NCBI GenBank assembly: GCA_963728205.1
Contig: CAVSIV010000006.1
Span: 1,152,001 to 1,216,000, forward strand
Source: an uncultured Chloroflexia bacterium
GTDB taxonomy: Bacteria; Chloroflexota; Dehalococcoidia; UBA2979
Length of the DNA stretch: 64,000 bases
Direction of reading: 5' to 3'
Shown: positions 47,098-55,945 of the stretch, piece after piece
Position numbering within the stretch: the first letter of the stretch is position 1
How the letters are laid out: the number at the start of each line of letters is the position of its first letter
Translations under genes and position numbers: made by a program
Notes under the pieces: generated by a model
What the model was told of the DNA's origin: nothing
Seen by the model: only the letters and a program-made list of their open reading frames with translations
Database searches by the model: none

Positions 47098-47357
47098 TGC
47101 CCGGCGCCTCGCGCGTCGTGCTCTACGGACGCCCGGCGTGCCACCTCTGCGACGACGTCGAGCCGGCGATCCGCGCGATGGCGCGCGACGCGGGAGCGCG
47201 CTTCGAGCGGGTCGACATCGACGAGGACGACGATTCCGTGCGCCGCTACGGCCTCGAGATCCCGGTCGTGGCGATCGACGACGTGGACGTCGCTCGCGCG
47301 CCGATCGACCTGCGCGACGTACGCGCGGCGCTCCGCGGCCCCGCCCGCGACGCCTGA
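47097..47357 (+). CDS. Glutaredoxin-like protein (DUF836)
   Basis: LYGRPACHLCD, VDID, YGLEIPV; TGATG overlap with lgt. Confidence 0.85.
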   Translation: MPGASRVVLYGRPACHLCDDVEPAIRAMARDAGARFERVDIDEDDDSVRRYGLEIPVVAIDDVDVARAPIDLRDVRAALRGPARDA

Positions 47358-47391: not shown

Positions 47392-47420
47392 TTGACAGCA
47401 ACCGGGGCCGAATCTAGGTT
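47392..47420 (+). promoter_or_regulatory. Sigma70-type promoter of the riboswitch operon
   Basis: TTGACA (47392) - 17 nt - TAGGTT (47415). Confidence 0.75.
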
Positions 47421-47451
47421 CTGATCGACGTCCTTCCTCCGCGGAGGGACG

Positions 47452-47569
47452 GTTCATCAAGAGCGGTGGAGGGCTCGGCCCTGGGAAACCGCGGCAACCG
47501 GTCACCTTTCGCCGGGGTGAACACGGTGCCAACTCCGACCCTTCCCACAGGGGGAAGGGGCAGATGAAC
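47452..47569 (+). ncRNA. SAM-I (S-box) riboswitch
   Basis: P1 GTTCATC/GATGAAC; ATCAAGAG, GGAGGG...GGCCC, GGCAACC, GGTGCCAACTCC conserved blocks in the expected order. Confidence 0.93.
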
Positions 47570-47752
47570 GGAAGGCGCCACGCGCATGCATCGCACCCCT
47601 CCTCCGCTCACACCTCCTGCCACGCCGCGGCACGTGATGGCGATGCGCTAGCCCGAACACCGTCCTTCCCGCGAAGGACGCGTGTCTCGGGCGCCTCCCT
47701 CCGCTCCACCGCCCCGGGGGCCTCTGCCTCGGTCAGTCGAGGAATGACACCA

Positions 47753-49012
47753 ATGGCGTTCGATCGTGCCCTGCGCTGCAGGGAGTGCGGGCGTGAATAC
47801 CCGCTCAACCCCATCTTCTCGTGCGAGTTCTGCTTCGGCCCGCTCGAGGTCGCATACGACTACGACGGCATTCGCGAGTCGAGCACCCGCGACGCCATCG
47901 AGCGCGGCCCGAGCACGCTCTGGCGCTACGCCGACTTCCTCCCGTGCGACCCGAGCTACAAGATCGACATCGGGACCGGCTACACGCCGCTGCTCCGCGC
48001 CGACCGCCTCGCGAAGGCGATCGGGCTCGACACGCTGTGGCTGAAGAACGACACCGTGAACCCCTCGTGGTCGTTCAAGGACCGCGTCGTCAGTGTCGCG
48101 ATCGCGCGGGCGCGCCAGTTCGGCTTCGAGGCCATGGCGTGCGCCAGCACCGGCAATCTCGCGAACTCCGTCGCGGCCCACTCGGCCGCGGCCGGCATGG
48201 ACTGCTTCGTCTTCATCCCCAACGACCTGGAGCAGGGCAAGGTGGTCGGCAGCGCGATCTACCGGCCGACGCTGGTGATGGTCGAGGGCTCGTACGACGA
48301 CGTGAACCGGCTCTGCACCGAGCTGTCGATGCAGTACCCGTGGGCGTTCGTGAACATCAACGTGCGCCCCTACTACGCCGAGGGCTCCCGCACGCTGGGC
48401 TTCGAGGTCGCCGAGCAGCTCGGCTGGCGCACGCCGGATCACGTGGTCGCGCCGATGGCGTCGGGTTCGCTCTACACGAAGATCTGGAAGGGCTTCCAGG
48501 AGTTCCACAAGGTCGGGCTGATCGCCGAGCCGAAGACGCGCATGTCCGGTGCGCAGGCGACCGGCTGCTCGCCGATCGCGACCGCCTACGAGGGCGGCAC
48601 GCTGAACTTCGTCCCGCAGAAGCCGCACACGATCGCGCGCTCGCTGGCCATCGGGAACCCGGCCGACGGCTACTATGCCCTGAAGCAGATGCAGGAGACC
48701 GGCGGCGGTGCCGCGATGGCGACCGACGACGAGATCGTTGACGGCATCAAGCTGCTGGCGGAGACCGAGGGCGTCTTCGCCGAGACCGCGGGCGGCGTGA
48801 CGATCGCCTGCCTGAAGAAGCTCGTCGCGTCCGGCTTCATCCGGCGCGACGAGGAGACGGTCGCGTTCATCACGGGCGCCGGTCTGAAGACGATCGAGGC
48901 GGTGGTCGACCGCGTCGAGGAGCCGCTCCGGGTCCCGGCGAACACCGAGCGCTTCGCGGAGGCGCTCGCCGCCCGCCGCGGCGGCGCGCCCGTGGCCGCG
49001 ACGGCCGGATAG
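47753..49012 (+). CDS. Threonine-synthase-like PLP enzyme (probable O-phosphohomoserine sulfhydrylase)
   Basis: CRECG/CEFC finger, NPSWSFKDR, CASTGNLA, IGNPADG, ETAGG; SAM-I control and adjacent sulfur carrier. Confidence 0.85.
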   Translation: MAFDRALRCRECGREYPLNPIFSCEFCFGPLEVAYDYDGIRESSTRDAIERGPSTLWRYADFLPCDPSYKIDIGTGYTPLLRADRLAKAIGLDTLWLKNDTVNPSWSFKDRVVSVAIARARQFGFEAMACASTGNLANSVAAHSAAAGMDCFVFIPNDLEQGKVVGSAIYRPTLVMVEGSYDDVNRLCTELSMQYPWAFVNINVRPYYAEGSRTLGFEVAEQLGWRTPDHVVAPMASGSLYTKIWKGFQEFHKVGLIAEPKTRMSGAQATGCSPIATAYEGGTLNFVPQKPHTIARSLAIGNPADGYYALKQMQETGGGAAMATDDEIVDGIKLLAETEGVFAETAGGVTIACLKKLVASGFIRRDEETVAFITGAGLKTIEAVVDRVEEPLRVPANTERFAEALAARRGGAPVAATAG

Positions 49013-49022
49013 GAGGCGCGAG

Positions 49023-49268
49023 ATGGCAGCGAAGCACGTCCGGCTCACGTTCAGCCCGGAGCTGATCAAGGAGCCGCTGATCTACCAGGTGGGCCACCAG
49101 TTCGCGGTGGTGACGAACGTCCGCATGGCCGACGTCGACAAGGACGTCGGCTGGGTGGTGCTGGAGCTCGAGGGCGACGACGCCGAGATCGTGCGCGCGC
49201 TCGACTGGTTCCGCTCGAAGGGCGTGCGCATCGACGAGGCGACGCTCGGCGACGTGGTCGAGGGCTGA
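49023..49268 (+). CDS. Stand-alone NIL-domain protein
   Basis: RLTF....IKEPLIY...F.V..NV..A.V....GWVVLELEG pattern of NIL domains. Confidence 0.78.
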   Translation: MAAKHVRLTFSPELIKEPLIYQVGHQFAVVTNVRMADVDKDVGWVVLELEGDDAEIVRALDWFRSKGVRIDEATLGDVVEG

Positions 49269-49317
49269 GCCGCGCGCGGCGCGAAGACGAAGCACGGAAC
49301 GGACAACGGAGCAGACG

Positions 49318-49593
49318 ATGGCCGTCAAGGTAAAGATCCCCACCCCGCTGCGGTCGCTGACCAACAACCAGGACCTGGTCTCGACCGAGGGCTCCACTGT
49401 GAGCGACGTCGTGCAGGCGCTCGAGGGAAGCTTCCCCGGCATGCGCGAGCGCATCCTCGACGACGGCGGGGAGATTCGCCGCTTCGTGAACGTCTACGTG
49501 AACGGCGAGGACGTGCGGTTCCTGCAGGGGCTGCAGACGTCGCTCAACGCCGGCGACGAGATCTCGATCGTCCCGGCGGTCGCGGGAGGCTAA
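49318..49593 (+). CDS. MoaD/CysO-like ubiquitin-fold sulfur carrier 1 (free C-terminal GG)
   Basis: VKIPTPLR, RRFVNVYVNGEDVR, IVPAVAGG-stop. Confidence 0.92.
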   Translation: MAVKVKIPTPLRSLTNNQDLVSTEGSTVSDVVQALEGSFPGMRERILDDGGEIRRFVNVYVNGEDVRFLQGLQTSLNAGDEISIVPAVAGG

Positions 49594-49652
49594 TCTCCGC
49601 GACCGGTGCAGCTCGAACGGCGACCCTCGCCACGAGCCCCGCGCGCCTTGCG

Positions 49653-49680
49653 TGTTACAATCTCGACTAGATTAGTCGTG
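49653..49680 (+). promoter_or_regulatory. Extended -10 promoter with Rrf2-type operator palindrome
   Basis: TGtTACAAT (49653-49661) followed by CGACTA-gat-TAGTCG (49664-49678), resembling the IscR type-1 box core GACT-N5-AGTC. Confidence 0.7.
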
Positions 49681-49697
49681 AATAGGAACCGCACGGG

Positions 49698-50138
49698 ATG
49701 CTGCTCAGCACCAAGGGCGACTACGGCGTTCGCGCGCTGATCGATCTCGCGAAGCACGCGGGCGAGGGCCCCGTGCAGCGGTCGGACATCGCCCGACGCC
49801 GCCAGCTCCCCGAGTCGTACCTCGATCACCTCCTCGCACAGTTGCGCCGCGACGGCTTCATCCGCAGCACCCGCGGTCCCGGCGGCGGCCACGAGCTCGC
49901 GCGCCCGGCCGAGGAGATCACGCTCCTCGAGGTGCTCGAGTGCCTCGAGGGCTCGCTCGCGCCGATGAGCTGCGTCGACGAGGCGAACCGCGGCGGCGAG
50001 TCGCTCTGCGGCCAGTCCTGGGTGTGGGAAGAGATCTACGACGAGATGCGTCGCCGGCTCGCCGCGATCACCCTCGCGGACCTCGTCGAGCATGAGCGGC
50101 AGCACGAGCGCGAAGCGGTCATCAACTACAGCATCTGA
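49698..50138 (+). CDS. Rrf2-family regulator, CymR-like
   Basis: STKGDYGVRALIDLA, YL..L...L...G.I.STRGPGGG, ends INYSI; directly upstream of cysK. Confidence 0.88.
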   Translation: MLLSTKGDYGVRALIDLAKHAGEGPVQRSDIARRRQLPESYLDHLLAQLRRDGFIRSTRGPGGGHELARPAEEITLLEVLECLEGSLAPMSCVDEANRGGESLCGQSWVWEEIYDEMRRRLAAITLADLVEHERQHEREAVINYSI

Positions 50139-50190
50139 GCCGTCGCCGGCGCCCCGCGCCAGCCGACCGGAGAGCGAGACGCGTCCACCG

Positions 50191-51159
50191 ATGACGCCCG
50201 AAGCACAGGTCACCCCCGGGATCACCGGCTCCGCGGCCGCGGCCGCCGGGACCGTCATCGCGGACTCCGTGCTCGAGCTGATCGGGCACACGCCGCTCGT
50301 GCGGCTGCGCCGCGTCGTACCGGACGACGTCGCCGAGGTGCTCGGCAAGTACGAGATCTTCAATCCCGGTGGCTCGGTGAAGGACCGCATCGCGCTGGCG
50401 ATGGTCGAGGCGGCGGAGCGCACCGGCGCGCTCGCCCCCGGCGCCACGATCGTGGAGCCGACGTCCGGGAACACCGGCATCGGCCTCGCGATGGTGTGCG
50501 CGACCAAGGGCTACCACCTGGTGCTCACGATGCCCGAGGACATGAGCGTGGAGCGCCGCCGGCTGCTCGAGCGGCTCGGCGCGCAGCTCGTGCTGACGCC
50601 GGCCATCGAAGGCATGACCGGCGCGGTGCACCAGGCGATGGAGCTCGTGACGCAGCATGGCTACTTCATGCCGCAGCAGTTCGACAACCCGGCCAACCCG
50701 GGGATCCACCGCGCGACCACGGGGCCCGAGATCCTCGAGGCGACGGGCGGCGCGGTCGACGCGTTCGTCGCCGGGGTGGGCACGGGCGGCACGATCACCG
50801 GCGCGGGTGGCGCGCTACGCGCGGCGATCCCGGGCGTGCTGATCGTGGCGGTGGAGCCGGCGCGCGCGCCGGTGCTGCAGGGCGGCCGGGCCGGCCTGCA
50901 CGGCATCCAGGGGATCGGCGCGTCGTTCGTGCCGGGCGTCCTGGACCGCGAGATCTACGACGAGGTGATCGGTGTCCAGGACGAGGACGCGTACGCGATG
51001 ACGAAGCGGCTCGCCCGTGAAGAAGGCATGCTGGCCGGCGTCTCGTCCGGCGCCAACGTGTGGGCGTCCCTCCAGGTCGCCCGCCGGCTCGGCCCCGGCA
51101 AGCGGGTCGTGACCATGTTGCCCGATACCGGGGAGCGCTACCTGAGCGTGGCCCTGTAG
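50191..51159 (+). CDS. cysK: Cysteine synthase A (O-acetylserine sulfhydrylase)
   Basis: NPGGSVKDRIA, EPTSGNTG, QQFDNPANP, GTGGT, HGIQGIG, PDTGERYLS. Confidence 0.93.
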   Translation: MTPEAQVTPGITGSAAAAAGTVIADSVLELIGHTPLVRLRRVVPDDVAEVLGKYEIFNPGGSVKDRIALAMVEAAERTGALAPGATIVEPTSGNTGIGLAMVCATKGYHLVLTMPEDMSVERRRLLERLGAQLVLTPAIEGMTGAVHQAMELVTQHGYFMPQQFDNPANPGIHRATTGPEILEATGGAVDAFVAGVGTGGTITGAGGALRAAIPGVLIVAVEPARAPVLQGGRAGLHGIQGIGASFVPGVLDREIYDEVIGVQDEDAYAMTKRLAREEGMLAGVSSGANVWASLQVARRLGPGKRVVTMLPDTGERYLSVAL

Positions 51160-51279
51160 GCCGCGCGGCCCGCCCCGCGCGCACGCGGGGTCGGCTGCGC
51201 GCAGACTGTACGTACAGATCGTAAGCGCGATCCGCGGGATGCTCGCGGGCCGCGAGGCAAGGAACGAGAGGATCGCCCC

Positions 51280-52428
51280 ATGCCGATCAGCGTCTACATC
51301 CCGTCGCCGTTCCGGCGGCTGACGGCCAACCGCGAGTACGTCTCGGTGGAGGGCCACAGCGTCGCAGAGGTGCTCGACGCGCTCGACACGCAGTACCCGG
51401 GCTTCGCGAACCTCGTCTACGACCGCGAACGCAAGGTGCCGTCGCACATCAACATCTACCTGAACAACCAGGAAATCCACGACCTGCAGGGCACCGACAC
51501 CTCCGTCGCCGACGGGGATCAGATCGCGGTGATCCCCGCCCTCGCCGGCGGCGCGGACGGCGGCGCCTCGGGTCCGACTGCGCCGGCGCCGGCGTCGACC
51601 GCGCTCACGCCGGAGGAGGTGATGCGCTACTCGCGGCACATCATCATGCCGCAGGTCGGCCCGCAGGGTCAGCGCAAGCTGCGCAACGCGAAGGTGCTCG
51701 TCATCGGCGCCGGCGGGCTCGGCGGCCCCGTCGCGCTCTACCTCGCGCTCGCGGGCGTCGGCACGATCGGCATCGTCGAGTTCGACGTCGTCGACCTCTC
51801 CAACCTGCAGCGGCAGATCCTCCACCAGACCGCCGACATCGGCCGCCCGAAGATCCAGTCGGCGAAGGACAAGCTGCAGGCCTACAACCCGCACGTGAAC
51901 GTGATCGAGCACACGATGCCGATCACCTCCGACAACGCGATGGACATCATCCCGAACTACGACATCGTGGTGAACGGCGCCGACAACTTCGCGACGCGCT
52001 ACCTCGTGAACGACGCCGCCTACCTCGCCGGCAAGACGCTCGTCGACGGCGCCATCCTGCTGTTCGACGGGCAGGCGACGGTCTACAAGCCGGGCCAGGG
52101 CTGCTACCGCTGCCTCTACCCGGATCCGCCCCCGCCGGGGCTGGTGCCCTCGTGCGCCGAGGCCGGCGTGCTCGGCGCGATCACCGGCATCGTCGGGTCG
52201 ATCCAGGCGACCGAGGTCTTCAAGCAGATCCTTGGCGTCGGCGAGCCGCTGGTGAATCGGCTCCTTCTGATCGACGCGCTCAGCATGGAGTTCCGCACCA
52301 TGAAGATCCGCCGCGATCCGAAGTGCCCGCTCTGCGGCGACGAGCCGACGGTGACGGAGCTCATCGACTACGACGCGTTCTGCGGCTCGCCTCCGCTAGA
52401 GGTGCCGGTCGCGGCCGCGGAGGCCTGA
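51280..52428 (+). CDS. Fusion of ubiquitin-like carrier (internal GG) and MoeB/ThiF E1-like adenylyltransferase
   Basis: N-terminus IPSPFR...IPALAGG, Ala/Pro linker, then RYSRH, GAGGLG, SNLQRQ, CYRC, PSCAEAGV, CPLC; no rhodanese tail. Confidence 0.9.
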   Translation: MPISVYIPSPFRRLTANREYVSVEGHSVAEVLDALDTQYPGFANLVYDRERKVPSHINIYLNNQEIHDLQGTDTSVADGDQIAVIPALAGGADGGASGPTAPAPASTALTPEEVMRYSRHIIMPQVGPQGQRKLRNAKVLVIGAGGLGGPVALYLALAGVGTIGIVEFDVVDLSNLQRQILHQTADIGRPKIQSAKDKLQAYNPHVNVIEHTMPITSDNAMDIIPNYDIVVNGADNFATRYLVNDAAYLAGKTLVDGAILLFDGQATVYKPGQGCYRCLYPDPPPPGLVPSCAEAGVLGAITGIVGSIQATEVFKQILGVGEPLVNRLLLIDALSMEFRTMKIRRDPKCPLCGDEPTVTELIDYDAFCGSPPLEVPVAAAEA

Positions 52429-52503
52429 TCGCGGAGCCGAAGGGGCGGGGAGCGGCGGGGACGTGCACGGCACACCCGACCGCGTGACGGGAGAGGACGC
52501 TCG

Positions 52504-52785
52504 ATGACGGTGAAGGTGCACGTCACCTCGGTCATTCAGAAGGTGGTCGATGGCCAGCGCGAGTTCGACGGCGACGGCGCGACGGTCGGCGAGCTGATCA
52601 CGAACATCGATCAGCGTTACCCCGGCTTCGCCAAGCAGCTGCTGGATGGCGAGGGCAAGCTGCACCGCTTCGTGAACGTCTACCTCAACGACGAGGACGT
52701 GCGGTACCTGGGTGGCCAGGACACGCCGCTGTCGGACGGCGATCACGTGTCGATCCTGCCCGCGCTCGCGGGCGGGTCGCGCTAG
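52504..52785 (+). CDS. MoaD/CysO-like sulfur carrier 3 with GG-SR C-terminal extension
   Basis: HRFVNVYLNDEDVR, ILPALAGGSR-stop. Confidence 0.9.
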   Translation: MTVKVHVTSVIQKVVDGQREFDGDGATVGELITNIDQRYPGFAKQLLDGEGKLHRFVNVYLNDEDVRYLGGQDTPLSDGDHVSILPALAGGSR

Positions 52786-52802
52786 GAACCGGCGGGCGCC
52801 CC

Positions 52803-53738
52803 ATGCGGTACGCCAGCGTGCTCGAGATGGTCGGGCACACCCCGCTCGTCGAGATCTCGCAGCTCTCGCCGAACCCCAGCGTCCAGATCTTCGCGAAGCT
52901 CGAGGGGCAGAACCCCACCGGCTCGGTCAAGGACCGCATCGCGAAGTTCATGATCGAGGCGGCCGAGGCGCGCGGCGAGCTCAAGCCCGGGCAGGTGATC
53001 TGCGAGCCAACGTCGGGCAACACCGGCATCGGCCTCGCGCTGATCGCGAGCCTGCGCGGCTACCCGATGAAGGTGGTCATGCCCGACGCCGTGAGCGCCG
53101 AGCGCACCGAGCTGCTGCGCGCGTACGGCGCCGAGATCATCTACTCGCCGGGAGACCTCGGCACGAATGGCTCCGTCGCGAAGGCGAAGGAGCTGCGCGC
53201 CGAGCACCCGGACTGGTTCTTCCCGTTCCAGTACGAGAACGCCGAGAACCCGCGCGCGCACTACGAGACCACGGGCCCCGAGATCATCGAGGACCTGCCG
53301 GACGTCACGGCGTTCGTCGCGGGGCTCGGCACCGGCGGGACGCTCACGGGCGTCGGCCGGCGGCTGAAGGAATACAACCCGGCGATCCGCGTGATCGCGG
53401 CGGCGCCCCACCCCGGCGACATGGTGCAGGGGCTGCGCTCGATGGAGGAGGGCTACATCCCGCCCGTCTTCGACGACTCCATTCTCGACGGCCGCATCGT
53501 GGTCGATTCCGCGACATCGTTCGCGATGACCAAGGAGCTCACGCAGCGCACCGGCATCTTCGCCGGCATCTCGAGCGGCGCGGCGGTGCGCGCGGCGCAG
53601 CGCGCCGCCGAGCGGGTGGCGCAGGGCAAGATCGTCTGCCTGCTTGCGGACGGCGGCTGGAAATACCTGTCGACCGGGCTGTGGAGCCGCGACTACCAGG
53701 ACATCACGGAGGACGTGAAAGAGAAGCTGTGGTGGTGA
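52803..53738 (+). CDS. cysM: CysM-type (carrier-dependent) cysteine synthase
   Basis: NPTGSVKDR, EPTSGNTG, ADGGWKYLSTG, C-terminal KLWW like mycobacterial CysM; adjacent CysO-like gene. Confidence 0.82.
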   Translation: MRYASVLEMVGHTPLVEISQLSPNPSVQIFAKLEGQNPTGSVKDRIAKFMIEAAEARGELKPGQVICEPTSGNTGIGLALIASLRGYPMKVVMPDAVSAERTELLRAYGAEIIYSPGDLGTNGSVAKAKELRAEHPDWFFPFQYENAENPRAHYETTGPEIIEDLPDVTAFVAGLGTGGTLTGVGRRLKEYNPAIRVIAAAPHPGDMVQGLRSMEEGYIPPVFDDSILDGRIVVDSATSFAMTKELTQRTGIFAGISSGAAVRAAQRAAERVAQGKIVCLLADGGWKYLSTGLWSRDYQDITEDVKEKLWW

Positions 53739-53757
53739 GCGGCGCGCCCGCGCGCGC

Positions 53758-54045
53758 TCAGGCGACGCCGCGCTGGCGGAGCGTGCCCTCGGACGCGCGG
53801 CGGTCGCCCTCGCGCATCGGAGCGACCTCGCACACCTCGCAGGGGTCCTGCAGCTTGTGGCGCAGGATCGCGGCGATGCGCTCGCCGCAGCGGCGGCACA
53901 TGTACGCGGAGATCACGCCGGCCGGACCGGCGGCGAAGCGGTTGAACTCGCTCGGCCCGCTCACGACGGCGCCCGGCATCAGCGTCAGCTCGAAGCCCTC
54001 GTGTTCGATCGGCTTGCGGCAGGTGTCGCACAGCAACGCGAGCAT
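53758..54045 (-). CDS. Small Cys-rich protein with three CxxC pairs
   Basis: CDTC, CRRC, CEVC in 95 aa; GGAGG RBS before ATG. Confidence 0.7.
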   Translation of the reverse strand: MLALLCDTCRKPIEHEGFELTLMPGAVVSGPSEFNRFAAGPAGVISAYMCRRCGERIAAILRHKLQDPCEVCEVAPMREGDRRASEGTLRQRGVA

Positions 54046-54166
54046 GGGTGCCTCCCGGGGCGAGCACGGCCGATCCGCGCAGCGCTCCCGCTGAGATCAT
54101 CGGCGGGACCCGCGCGTCCCCACAGGCCCGACCGCGTCGCGCAGGGCCCGCGACGAGGAGGAGACG

Positions 54167-55045
54167 ATGGTCGACGCGAGGAGCGATCCGGGCGAGCGCT
54201 CCGCGGTGCCGCGGGTGGTGAGCTGCGACTGGGCGGCGGAGCACCTGGGGGACTCGGGCGTGCGGTTCGTCGAGGTCGACGTCGACACCGAGGCATACGG
54301 CGAGGGACACATCGAGGGTGCGGTCGCCTGGAACTGGACGACGCAGCTGCAGGATCCGCGGCGGCGCGACATCCTCGGCCCCGACGCGTTCGCGGAGTTG
54401 ATGGGGCGCTCCGGCATCACGCGCGACACGCACGTCGTCCTCTACGGCGATAACAACAACTGGTTCGCCGCCTTCGGGCTCTGGCTGCTCGAGCTGTACG
54501 GCCATGAGCGGGCGTCGCTGATGGACGGCGGCCGCGTGAAATGGCTGGGCGACGACCGCCCCACGACGTCGACCGTCCCCGCGGTCGAGGCGGTCGAGTA
54601 CGGCACCCCGACCCTCGACCCGGCGCAGCGTGCACGACGCGACGACGTGCTGGCCGCGCTCACGGCCGGGGGCGCGCAGCTGATCGACGTGCGCAGCCCC
54701 GCGGAGTTCTCGGGCGAGGTGATCGCGCCGCCGGGGATGACTGAGACCGCGCAGCGCGGCGGGCACATTCCCGGCGCGCTCAACGTGCCCTGGGCGCGGG
54801 CCGTGAACGAGGACGGGACGTTCAAGACGCCCGCCGAGCTGCGGCAGCTCTATGGCGCCGCCGGGCTGCGCGACGGCGGCGACGAGACGATCGTGTACTG
54901 CCGGATCGGGGAGCGCTCGGCGCATACGTGGTTCGTGCTGCGGCACCTGCTCGGCCTCCCCCGCGTGAAGAACTACGACGGGTCCTGGACCGAGTACGGG
55001 TCGCTGATCGGCGTGCCGATCGAGCGCGAGCACGAGGAGGGGTGA
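54167..55045 (+). CDS. Tandem-domain rhodanese / thiosulfate sulfurtransferase
   Basis: GHIEGAV, LIDVRSPAEF, GHIPGA, active site YCRIGERS, YDGSWTEY. Confidence 0.93.
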   Translation: MVDARSDPGERSAVPRVVSCDWAAEHLGDSGVRFVEVDVDTEAYGEGHIEGAVAWNWTTQLQDPRRRDILGPDAFAELMGRSGITRDTHVVLYGDNNNWFAAFGLWLLELYGHERASLMDGGRVKWLGDDRPTTSTVPAVEAVEYGTPTLDPAQRARRDDVLAALTAGGAQLIDVRSPAEFSGEVIAPPGMTETAQRGGHIPGALNVPWARAVNEDGTFKTPAELRQLYGAAGLRDGGDETIVYCRIGERSAHTWFVLRHLLGLPRVKNYDGSWTEYGSLIGVPIEREHEEG

Positions 55046-55046
55046 C

Positions 55047-55442
55047 ATGGCGTCGAGCGTCGGCGTCCTCGAGCAGGCCGTTTTGCGGCGCGCGCTGGCG
55101 GCGCGCGACGCGGCCCGGCTGCCGCTGCGCTTCCACGCAGCGGTGGTCGACCGCTACCGCGAGCATGCGAGCGCGCAGCTGCTGCGCACGCGCACCGTCG
55201 GCCGCATCGCGATCCCGGGGCGGTGGACGCTCGACCTCGGCATCGTCGACGGGGACGCCGCGCCGAAGACCGGACCGGAGGTCCACCTCCCGTTCCAGGA
55301 CTTCGTCGACCGCCTGCCCGAGGCAGAGTGGCCGCACTGGATCGAGCACCTGGTGGAGGTGCCGGCGAGCGCGAACTTCCTGCAGATGCGGATGACGCCC
55401 GGCGCCTGCATCGACGACGGCGAGACGCACGACTGGGAGTGA
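55047..55442 (+). CDS. Hypothetical protein inside the sulfur-relay operon
   Basis: GAGGAGG RBS, starts 1 nt after the rhodanese stop; ends GACIDDGETHDWE. Confidence 0.72.
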   Translation: MASSVGVLEQAVLRRALAARDAARLPLRFHAAVVDRYREHASAQLLRTRTVGRIAIPGRWTLDLGIVDGDAAPKTGPEVHLPFQDFVDRLPEAEWPHWIEHLVEVPASANFLQMRMTPGACIDDGETHDWE

Positions 55443-55507
55443 CGCCGCGGCGGGCCGGCGGGCCTCCGCGGATCGAGTGCCCGAGTGTCCGAACGATGGA
55501 GGACCGC

Positions 55508-55945
55508 ATGCCCCGCATTCCGCGCGCGATCGTCGACGCCATGATCGCGCACGCTCGCGAGGACCTGCCCAACGAGGCCTGCGGCATGGTGCACGCCCGC
55601 GACGGCGTGCCCATCGCCGTGCATCGCGTGCAGAACGCGGCGGCGAGCCCGTACCGCTACGAGATGAACCCGCTGCAGATGATGCGGCTGGAGAACCAGC
55701 GCGACGAGACGGGCGAGACGCTGTTTGCGATCTACCACTCGCACGTCGCTTCCGAAGCACGCCCGTCGCCGACCGACGTGCGCATGGCGTTCTTCCCGCC
55801 CGGCGAGACCGACCGGGAGCCGATGTACCCGCAGACCTACTACATCCTCGTGTCGCTCGCCCAGGAGCCGCCCGACGTCCGCGCGTTCTTCATCCGGCAG
55901 GGCGGCGTGATCGACGAGGAGTCGGTGGAGGTCGTGGCGGGCTGA
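55508..55945 (+). CDS. JAMM/Mec+ (M67) metallopeptidase
   Basis: PNEACG, YHSH...ARPSPTD JAMM motif; GGAGG RBS. Confidence 0.92.
   Translation: MPRIPRAIVDAMIAHAREDLPNEACGMVHARDGVPIAVHRVQNAAASPYRYEMNPLQMMRLENQRDETGETLFAIYHSHVASEARPSPTDVRMAFFPPGETDREPMYPQTYYILVSLAQEPPDVRAFFIRQGGVIDEESVEVVAG

Follow-up and report, generated by a model that had tools for sequence, protein, structure and literature searches.

The CysO/CysM/Mec/MoeZ pathway to cysteine in Mycobacterium tuberculosis was reportedly described by Burns and colleagues in 2005, and Krishnamoorthy and Begley are said to have found in 2011 that the HcyS/HcyF/HcyD/MetY system of Wolinella succinogenes makes homocysteine on a thiocarboxylated carrier. 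The MetM/MetO route of Streptomyces albulus, reportedly described by Hasebe and colleagues in 2024 (Appl Environ Microbiol 90:e01247-24), is listed with the carrier MetO, the MetO-sulfur ligase MoeZ, the maturation hydrolase Mec and MetM itself (GapMind 2026, PMC13759103), and in S. albulus metM is preceded by an S-adenosylmethionine (SAM) riboswitch (PMC12172450). Fusions of an N-terminal ubiquitin-like (Ubl) domain to ThiF that co-occur with free carriers were catalogued in 2006, as was an operon type of ThiS, E1, JAB and cysteine-synthase genes that includes Chloroflexus (Iyer, Burroughs and Aravind; PMC1779556). Here we describe a gene cluster with three carriers, one E1 and a JAMM protease at positions 47451-55945 of a 64,000-nucleotide stretch, the window (G000:C6:1152001-1216000, contig CAVSIV010000006.1), of an uncultured member of the Dehalococcoidia whose 4.1-Mb genome is held in 6 contigs and is 89% complete.

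The locus is best read, from its sequence, as the known MetM/MetO (Streptomyces-type) and CysO/CysM (Mycobacterium-type) pathways side by side, with one E1 for both. We consider it likely that these genes form a sulfur-amino-acid supercluster, conserved in a Dehalococcoidia lineage of family rank and laid out in three units, and that they provide for carrier-dependent synthesis of methionine and cysteine with a shared E1, rhodanese and JAMM protease. The original prediction had proposed a methionine and a cysteine branch sharing an E1, and this stands insofar as the two sets of genes lie side by side in a kept order with a sole E1; it fares less well in that the E1-linked carrier has no assignable synthase and the CysK scores as an ordinary O-acetylserine (OAS) sulfhydrylase. 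The sharing itself has a precedent, the Streptomyces account already having MoeZ and Mec common to the methionine and CysO routes (GapMind 2026, PMC13759103). The core chemistry is likewise already known and is not surprising. What differs here is the union of both systems, the MoeB-type E1 with its masked third carrier, the separate rhodanese, the NIL-domain protein, the protein orf131 and the Rrf2-CysK pair that heads the cysteine genes. No description of a metM-NIL-metO arrangement or of the combined supercluster was found in the literature searched, the primary MetM/MetO paper lying outside that search.

Gene content and conservation

The ThrC-like protein was used to scan genomes, one from each species, which gave 62 loci, and the proteins of the window were searched by phmmer against the six-frame open reading frames (ORFs) of these loci. 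Loci with a MetM score above 700 (n = 55) are referred to as close, and presence was counted only in loci of sufficient length. Within this set the NIL gene and carrier A are each present in 49 of 49 loci, Rrf2 and CysK in 47 of 48, E1 and carrier C in 46 of 47, CysM in 45 of 46, rhodanese in 35 of 44 and orf131 in 34 of 44. The order is colinear in 51 of the 55; the remaining four comprise two with an extra upstream rhodanese match and two with double matches in the orf131/JAMM overlap. The survey of gene neighbourhoods proposed with the original prediction thus finds the order kept among relatives. Every element that had been listed (the riboswitch, three carriers, E1, JAMM protease, rhodanese, three pyridoxal phosphate (PLP) synthases and Rrf2) was located in the cluster, and that list had omitted the NIL gene, orf131 and a minus-strand ORF of 95 amino acids (aa).

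MetA/HTS was not found in the 89% complete assembly, no MetX was identified (best match 25 bits), and Cys_Met_Meta_PP (PF01053; MetB/C/Y/Z) gave only a partial match of 34 bits and no genuine enzyme, so that the proposed check for metA, metX, metY and metB turned up none that could be recognised. With these enzymes not found, MetM is the only recognisable route to homocysteine; ThrB and an S-methyl_trans (MetH-type) domain are both present. We scored a MetM-type profile in 31 related genomes. The MetM type exceeds 630 bits in 29 of the 31, the paralogues reaching at most 255 bits. Among 18 relatives of the same family no more than 2 have a genuine PF01053 enzyme, and none of 3 of the same genus does; most of these genomes are at least 90% complete.

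No ThiF-family E1 other than the carrier B::E1 fusion was found in the 89% complete genome, and 15 of the 18 family relatives also have a single strong E1. Seven ThiS-family domains are encoded, three in the cluster and four elsewhere, the latter being a MoaD::MoaE fusion, two genes beside molybdenum (Mo)-hydroxylase genes and one before an aldehyde:ferredoxin oxidoreductase (AOR) gene, so that one E1 must serve the cofactor, cysteine and methionine carriers. Use of a single E1 by MoaD-type and CysO-type carriers is a likeness to M. tuberculosis, and by analogy the arrangement here would extend the double role of MoeZR in mycobacteria, where it serves both MoaD and CysO (PMC3227635).

Several observations weigh against the three-unit, carrier-dependent reading. 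Since the genome is 89% complete, the enzyme absences fall short of proof. The MetM type and a genuine PF01053 enzyme coexist in 7 of the 31 related genomes, and in one member of the same class (G027:C1:8493-10923) a MetY/MetB-type PF01053 gene adjoins the MetM-type gene, so that within the class one route does not preclude the other. About a fifth of the close loci have no rhodanese and about a fifth no orf131, and neither gene may be obligatory. The E1 is without the rhodanese domain of MoeZ, and it falls below the cut-offs for MoeZ (380.3 against 647) and UbaA. No NIL gene was found in an Actinomycetes-titled genome (L059) that has a MetM-like gene, and the likeness to the S. albulus MetM/MetO system is drawn from the published description and from gene context. 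Finally, carrier A is left in the carrier tree as an unresolved remainder, not one group, and carriers A and C resemble CysO about equally, so that it is adjacency alone that assigns each of them to a synthase.

Features of the locus are collected in Table 1. The convergent 95-aa ORF, homologues of which were found only in 8 related loci (L002, L003, L020, L021, L023, L028, L031 and L063), breaks up the cluster of this genome into separate transcription units, and folP and folK are the next genes after the JAMM gene. In the arrangement we envisage, a riboswitch-controlled operon metM > NIL > metO would be expressed at low SAM, a second unit would run from an operator-controlled promoter through rrf2 > cysK > carrier B::E1 > cysO > cysM, and a third, rhodanese > orf131 > JAMM, would supply services common to both branches.

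Table 1. Features of the sulfur-relay locus, with positions in the window.
Feature	Position	Strand	Basis or remark
Glutaredoxin-like (DUF836) gene with CHLC motif	47103-47357		Directly upstream of riboswitch; kept there in relatives
SAM-I riboswitch aptamer	47451-47570	+	RF00162, 80.1 bits
metM-like ThrC-family PLP enzyme	47753-49012	+	PALP 223.9 bits; TIGR00260 271.1 bits
NIL-domain protein, stand-alone, 81 aa, end GDVVEG	49023-49268	+	PF09383, 54.6 bits
Carrier A (metO-like), ThiS/MoaD/CysO-like, end VAGG	49318-49593	+	ThiS 70.2 bits
TACAAT box and palindromic operator CGACTAGATTAGTCG	49656-49678	+	Sequence
rrf2, regulator ending ...NYSI	49698-50138	+	Rrf2 131.3 bits
cysK, start codon uncertain	about 50191-51159	+	TIGR01139 435.8 bits
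Carrier B::E1 fusion, 382 aa	51280-52428	+	ThiS residues 7-91, ThiF residues 117-350
Carrier C (cysO-like), end AGG-SR	52504-52785	+	Best solved relative CysO
cysM-type synthase	52803-53738	+	Best solved relative M. tuberculosis CysM
ORF of 95 aa, two CxxC pairs, no Pfam/NCBIfam family	53758-54045	-	Between cysM and rhodanese
Two-domain rhodanese, CRIGERS active-site loop	54167-55045	+	Rhodanese 112.1 bits, 2 stretches
orf131, 131 aa, invariant Cys in ACIDDG motif	55047-55442	+	No family match
JAMM/Prok-JAB protease (mec-like), intact E...HSHx7SxxD	55496-55945	+	Prok-JAB 71.9 bits

Carriers, E1 and protease

The three carriers are 35-41% identical to one another. The different C-termini by which they had been told apart are seen in this locus but are not carrier-specific, since 20 of 56 carrier A sequences and 12 of 48 carrier C sequences stop exactly at GG, the rest having 1-3 extra residues; the GG itself is invariant in the carrier A alignment. 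Among close relatives carrier B is fused to E1 in 22, is a separate gene in 25 and is absent in 2 (L008 and L055), and the split form always has 2-10 residues after the GG. A search of 151 genomes of the class gave an E1 match in 128, and in 58 of these a carrier is fused in frame to the E1, so that the fusion is widespread; among relatives it alternates with the split form. In the window the Ubl portion (51280-51552) ends in ALAGG and is followed by a linker of about 25 residues and an adenylation domain with CxxC...CxxC, the best solved relative of the E1 being E. coli MoeB (1jw9_B, 196.9 bits).

With one E1 activating all of them, the carriers could be interchangeable and redundant sulfur donors for MetM, CysM and other enzymes, their adjacency to particular synthases being historical. 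The mutual identity, the A-G-G end common to all, the similar scores of carriers A and C against M. tuberculosis CysO, which is the best solved relative of both (3dwg_C, 80 and 83.9 bits respectively), and the lack of carrier B in L008 and L055 are all in keeping with this. We nevertheless regard it as unlikely. Carriers B and C form separate supported groups across the lineage (98/99 and 98/95 respectively in a tree of 81 rows drawn from every second locus), the partner gene beside each carrier is constant in 45-49 close loci, and other Chloroflexota classes have metM-NIL-carrier A as one block that does not include the other carriers.

A different role is conceivable for carrier B, and perhaps for A and C, as chiefly a protein modifier of the SAMP/TtuB/Urm1 kind, which would be made as an E1-fused precursor, released by the JAMM protease and conjugated to lysines on target proteins, sulfur transfer being secondary. 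The lack of an assignable synthase for carrier B and the retention of its GG in both fused and split forms fit such a role, as do the scores with NCBIfam models: carrier A passes the SAMP1 equivalog cut-off of 60 (74.8) and carriers B and C come near it (55.2 and 54.3), the E1 matches the UbaA model and the JAMM protein the desampylase model. However, these last two scores miss their cut-offs (326.1 against 450 and 62.1 against 130), the locus showed no gene resembling an E2 or E3, and the genomic context is entirely one of sulfur amino-acid metabolism. We think a predominantly modifying role quite improbable. A role for carrier B in thiamine synthesis was considered and rejected, as a search for ThiG found no genuine one in this genome or in most family relatives.

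If the carriers are sulfur donors, as we prefer to read them, the MoeB-type E1 would adenylate the C-terminal Gly of every one, including the four Mo cofactor (Moco)-linked MoaD-like proteins, and the separate rhodanese, a predicted persulfide donor to the E1-carrier adenylate, would supply sulfur in place of the MoeZ rhodanese domain. The E1 consists only of ThiS and ThiF domains and in this departs from M. tuberculosis MoeZ; relative to the S. albulus system it is without a rhodanese domain, has an N-terminal carrier domain, and is accompanied by a rhodanese encoded as a separate gene. Comparison with the 2006 catalogue is similarly mixed. One of its fusions, that of Pelobacter, adjoins a sulfhydrylase and a cysteine synthase, a resemblance to this locus, whereas the fusions described there are mostly in thiamine operons and no ThiG was found here; its type 4c E1 carries a rhodanese domain and the present one does not; and ThrC-like and NIL genes are found here, none being noted in the catalogue passages on these operons (PMC1779556).

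The GG is always masked in carrier B and often in carriers A and C, so a protease that cuts after GG is needed, and the JAMM gene (best solved relative 2kks_A, 65.3 bits) is the obvious candidate. It would trim the variable residues after the GG, and would probably also free carrier B from E1 and possibly MoaD from MoaE. Removal of an extra C-terminal carrier residue by a JAMM protease is reportedly also a feature of the Wolinella HcyS/HcyF/HcyD system. The fused MoaD-MoaE protein of M. tuberculosis, MoaX, is cut after its GG by a protease that is unidentified in the account of it (PMC4326299); carrier B is similar in having its GG buried in a fusion that needs such a cut, and differs in that its partner is an E1 and not MoaE, and in that the same cluster holds a JAMM gene as candidate protease. 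We also note that the MoaD::MoaE fusion of this genome lies outside the window (G000:C6:1236273-1236983, minus strand, 237 aa) and has its GG buried too, so that the genome holds two different carrier fusions calling for cleavage after GG.

The cysteine and methionine synthases

For the CysM-type synthase the best solved relative is the CysM of M. tuberculosis (3dwg_A, 295.3 bits), which outscores every other cysteine synthase, and the alignment extends over residues 2-310 against 5-324, C-terminal tail included. The synthase passes the cysKM subfamily model (347.6, cut-off 344.15) and misses the E. coli-type cysM equivalog (304.7 against 394.2). Carrier C lies 17 nucleotides (nt) upstream of cysM, and the CysM and CysO of 3DWG are chains solved as one complex, 3DWM being another structure from that pathway. 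CysM would condense a phosphoserine-type substrate with the carrier C-thiocarboxylate, and an S-to-N shift would then give carrier-Cys, from which the JAMM protease would free cysteine. The genes thus resemble those of M. tuberculosis in that cysO adjoins cysM, a JAMM gene is close by, and the best matches are to the solved pair; they are unlike them in that rhodanese and orf131 separate the JAMM gene from cysO-cysM, and in that the Rrf2-cysK pair heads the operon.

CysK presents a different picture. It passes the TIGR01139 OASS-A equivalog (435.8, cut-off 350.95), cysE is encoded elsewhere in the genome, an NIR_SIR sulfite reductase is present, and CysK is retained in L008 and L055, both without an E1-linked carrier. 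As CysK persists where carrier B is missing, the acceptor of carrier B is probably not CysK, which is more likely an ordinary sulfide enzyme that uses OAS and is the partner of the Rrf2 repressor. Cysteine would then probably be made in this organism by two routes, one from sulfide and OAS and one by way of a carrier; mycobacteria likewise have both.

The presence of this standard sulfide enzyme and of a sulfite reductase, together with the requirement that the only E1 also serve MoaD-type proteins, could be taken to mean that the synthases use free sulfide in vivo, that the carriers, E1 and JAMM protease serve Mo/tungsten (W) cofactor synthesis or another thiolation, and that clustering reflects co-regulation. 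This is very unlikely in our view, given that the MoaD-like genes linked to Moco lie outside the cluster and differ from carriers A, B and C (22-39% identity), that CysM has as its closest relative, over its whole length, the carrier-dependent enzyme of M. tuberculosis, that the adjacency of cysO-cysM and of metM-(NIL)-metO is conserved, and that no other homocysteine route was found in the genome.

The MetM-like protein has an extra N-terminal Cys4 zinc-ribbon ahead of its ThrC-like part, and its best solved relatives, which are threonine synthases (2zsj, 219.8 bits), align only from about residue 52. Actinomycetota-titled homologues (L059 and L060) are 57-58% identical to it. Two further ThrC-family genes in the genome, one of them scoring higher on the thrC model (312.7 bits), mean that the riboswitch-controlled copy is not needed for threonine. 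That it is a second threonine synthase with unrelated small neighbours is scarcely credible: although it passes the TIGR00260 thrC cut-off (167.1) and has threonine synthases as its closest solved relatives, it is preceded by a SAM riboswitch and not by a threonine signal, those two other ThrC-family genes are at hand, throughout the phylum it is invariably linked to a GG carrier, and MetM is frequently misannotated as threonine synthase (GapMind 2026, PMC13759103). A third ThrC-family paralogue (G000:C2:484429-485565; profile positions 6-381, 244 bits) also has an N-terminal zinc-ribbon region and recurs in several relatives.

The SAM-I riboswitch that had been recognised ahead of metM matches RF00162 at full length (model positions 1-108 of 108; E = 3e-17) with a score well above the gathering score of 44.4. 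An expression platform of about 180 nt separates the aptamer from the metM start. No intrinsic terminator was found behind the riboswitch in a terminator scan of the region, the sole match there being on the minus strand within the E1 gene, a count below chance expectation. Of 15 related loci scanned, 7 also have RF00162 ahead of metM: 4 of 5 long close-relative loci and 3 of 10 short loci from other Chloroflexota, which include little upstream DNA.

MetM would exchange the phosphate of O-phosphohomoserine, the ThrB product, for the sulfur of carrier A-thiocarboxylate to give homocysteine, which the MetH-type enzyme would then methylate. In its parts this resembles the S. albulus system, with a ThrC-like enzyme beside a small sulfur-carrier gene, a SAM riboswitch upstream, an E1-type sulfur ligase, a carrier-maturing JAMM hydrolase, and ThrB to supply the substrate. 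The differences are that a NIL gene stands between metM and metO, that the methionine genes are physically joined to the cysteine genes, and that the host belongs to the Chloroflexota; the steps that GapMind lists for the route include no NIL component (GapMind 2026, PMC13759103). The Wolinella route reportedly depends on a MetY-type (PF01053) sulfhydrylase, and a search of this genome found no such enzyme.

Accessory proteins, regulation and implications

The NIL gene is the third member of the metM-metO operon in all 49 close loci in which it could be scored. MetN carries a C-terminal NIL domain, and the stand-alone protein gives only weak sequence matches to the C-terminal domains of MetN proteins. 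A NIL profile matches 91 of 301 sampled Chloroflexota genomes (a tally that includes the unpublished G068), and among the 29 best loci outside the window metM adjoins NIL in 23, arranged as metM-NIL-carrier in 17, metM-NIL in 2 and metM-carrier-NIL in 4. In the phylum of L059 a NIL protein occurs in 120 of 301 genomes, and metM is adjacent in none of the 25 best loci, three of which come from unpublished genomes (G478, G412 and G418). NIL is thus a frequent but not universal companion of MetM/MetO. By analogy with the NIL domain of MetN, the role we prefer is that of sensing a methionine-type ligand, with an effect on MetM or on the carrier, an alternative being a sulfur-relay adaptor. A thiocarboxylate role for its C-terminal Gly was set aside, NIL proteins of other contexts ending in GDVVSG, GDIIAG, GDVVH or GDVVES.

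A NIL/ferredoxin component is also part of the HcyBio (COG1900/DUF39) route of methanogens and some anaerobes (GapMind 2026, PMC13759103). The NIL domain is tied to homocysteine synthesis in both settings, although here it is stand-alone, without a ferredoxin domain, and paired with MetM/MetO. Other NIL contexts were noted during the survey. A low-GC Dehalococcoidia genome (L107) has a NIL-ferredoxin gene beside HcyBio; two loci of another Chloroflexota family (L102:3334-4602 and L103:3933-5183) have a GFO/IDH/MocA::NIL fusion beside ABC-2 transporter genes; and L113 has a NIL gene among cysK, E1, Rrf2 and cysK. In L111 and L116, of the L059 phylum, a stand-alone NIL ending in GDVVEG is flanked by a CvpA (Colicin V production) membrane protein on one side and, on the other, by a protein of about 275 aa, which has a weak PP-loop/NAD-synthase-like match in L111 and no Pfam match in L116. 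A search for longer NIL-containing proteins found only P0098 (327 aa, on one contig), in which an Arg-rich linker connects NIL to a C-terminal portion of MetM, and which we read as a likely frameshift or gene-call artefact and not a fusion.

The protein orf131 belongs to no Pfam or NCBIfam family and has no solved relative by sequence. It is lineage-restricted and its family is small: 97 clusters were counted, and a profile search of 1.84 billion proteins gave 79 representatives at E<=0.001. C121, in the ACIDDG motif, is invariant. Among longer matches one protein of 385 aa joins a rhodanese domain to an orf131 domain, the others being probable chimeras. A confident structure model (pLDDT 83.9) gave nothing at E<=0.001 by Foldseek against the PDB, and the best VIA-align Z of 3.5 was uninformative. 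Assignment to DUF3386 was dropped, as the best ESM Atlas score of 0.82 is below the level worth following. That orf131 acts as a persulfide relay is a guess.

An Rrf2/CymR-type operator had also been noted at the locus. The regulator passes the Rrf2 superfamily model (128.1 against 73.3), and a perfect palindrome, CGACTAGATTAGTCG, lies at 49664-49678, just downstream of the TACAAT box and upstream of rrf2, with a TACAAT/TATGAT + GAC(T/C)nnnnn(T/C)AGTC layout preceding rrf2 in most relatives. The superfamily gene and the conserved palindrome are both present, but the narrower CymR label is less secure, the protein scoring below the equivalog cut-offs for CymR (NF047409, 107.2 against 195) and IscR (101 against 207.55). 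The 4.1-Mb genome holds only two other sites within one mismatch of the operator; these GACTA-N3-TAGTC cores, at G000:C6:1008716 and G000:C2:181152, lie in AT-rich promoter-like DNA and are possible further targets of the regulator.

CysK partners usually have a conserved C-terminal Ile, and CymR of B. subtilis forms a DNA-stabilising complex with CysK (Tanous et al. 2008, via PMC4961446). In the Rrf2 proteins of this lineage a C-terminal Ile ([NS]-Y-x-I) is found in 50 of 51 relatives, and Cys92 and Cys104 are invariant (52 of 52); cysK is the gene after rrf2 in this genome, as it is in L087 and L113, two loci from other lineages. The likeness to CymR-CysK is that an Rrf2-family repressor is tied to CysK and ends in a residue that fits the partner rule; the differences are the score below the CymR cut-off, the adjoining genes and the two invariant Cys. 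A CymR-like Rrf2-CysK sensor is a reasonable inference by analogy, in which the ...Y-x-I tail would dock in CysK, with CysK probably acting as the repressor partner. Such a sensor would explain why cysK is in the operon without need of a carrier.

A bolder set of proposals can be made jointly, although we hold the combination to be doubtful. Carrier B would be made in the manner of ubiquitin, as a precursor on its own E1, and once released by the JAMM protease would act as a protein modifier or as a sulfur donor to some further acceptor; this protease would also cut MoaX-like MoaD-MoaE fusions; NIL would be an obligatory MetM/MetO subunit that would sense methionine or SAM and throttle MetM, or would dock the carrier on MetM; and orf131 would relay persulfide from the rhodanese to E1 through its invariant Cys.

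The value of the locus lies in its accessory parts and their integration, the core chemistry being known. It provides natural material for questions such as the role of NIL with MetM/MetO and the protease that frees fused carriers (carrier::E1 and MoaD::MoaE), and it bears on whether an Rrf2 regulator with a CysK-docking tail extends the CymR-CysK mechanism beyond the Firmicutes. If our reading of two carrier-dependent branches with a shared E1 is true, one E1 would serve seven carriers, and in a widespread uncultured high-GC Dehalococcoidia lineage protein thiocarboxylates would be the site of synthesis of all homocysteine and of part of the cysteine. Metabolic reconstructions based on MetA/X/Y/B would then wrongly score these organisms as methionine auxotrophs.

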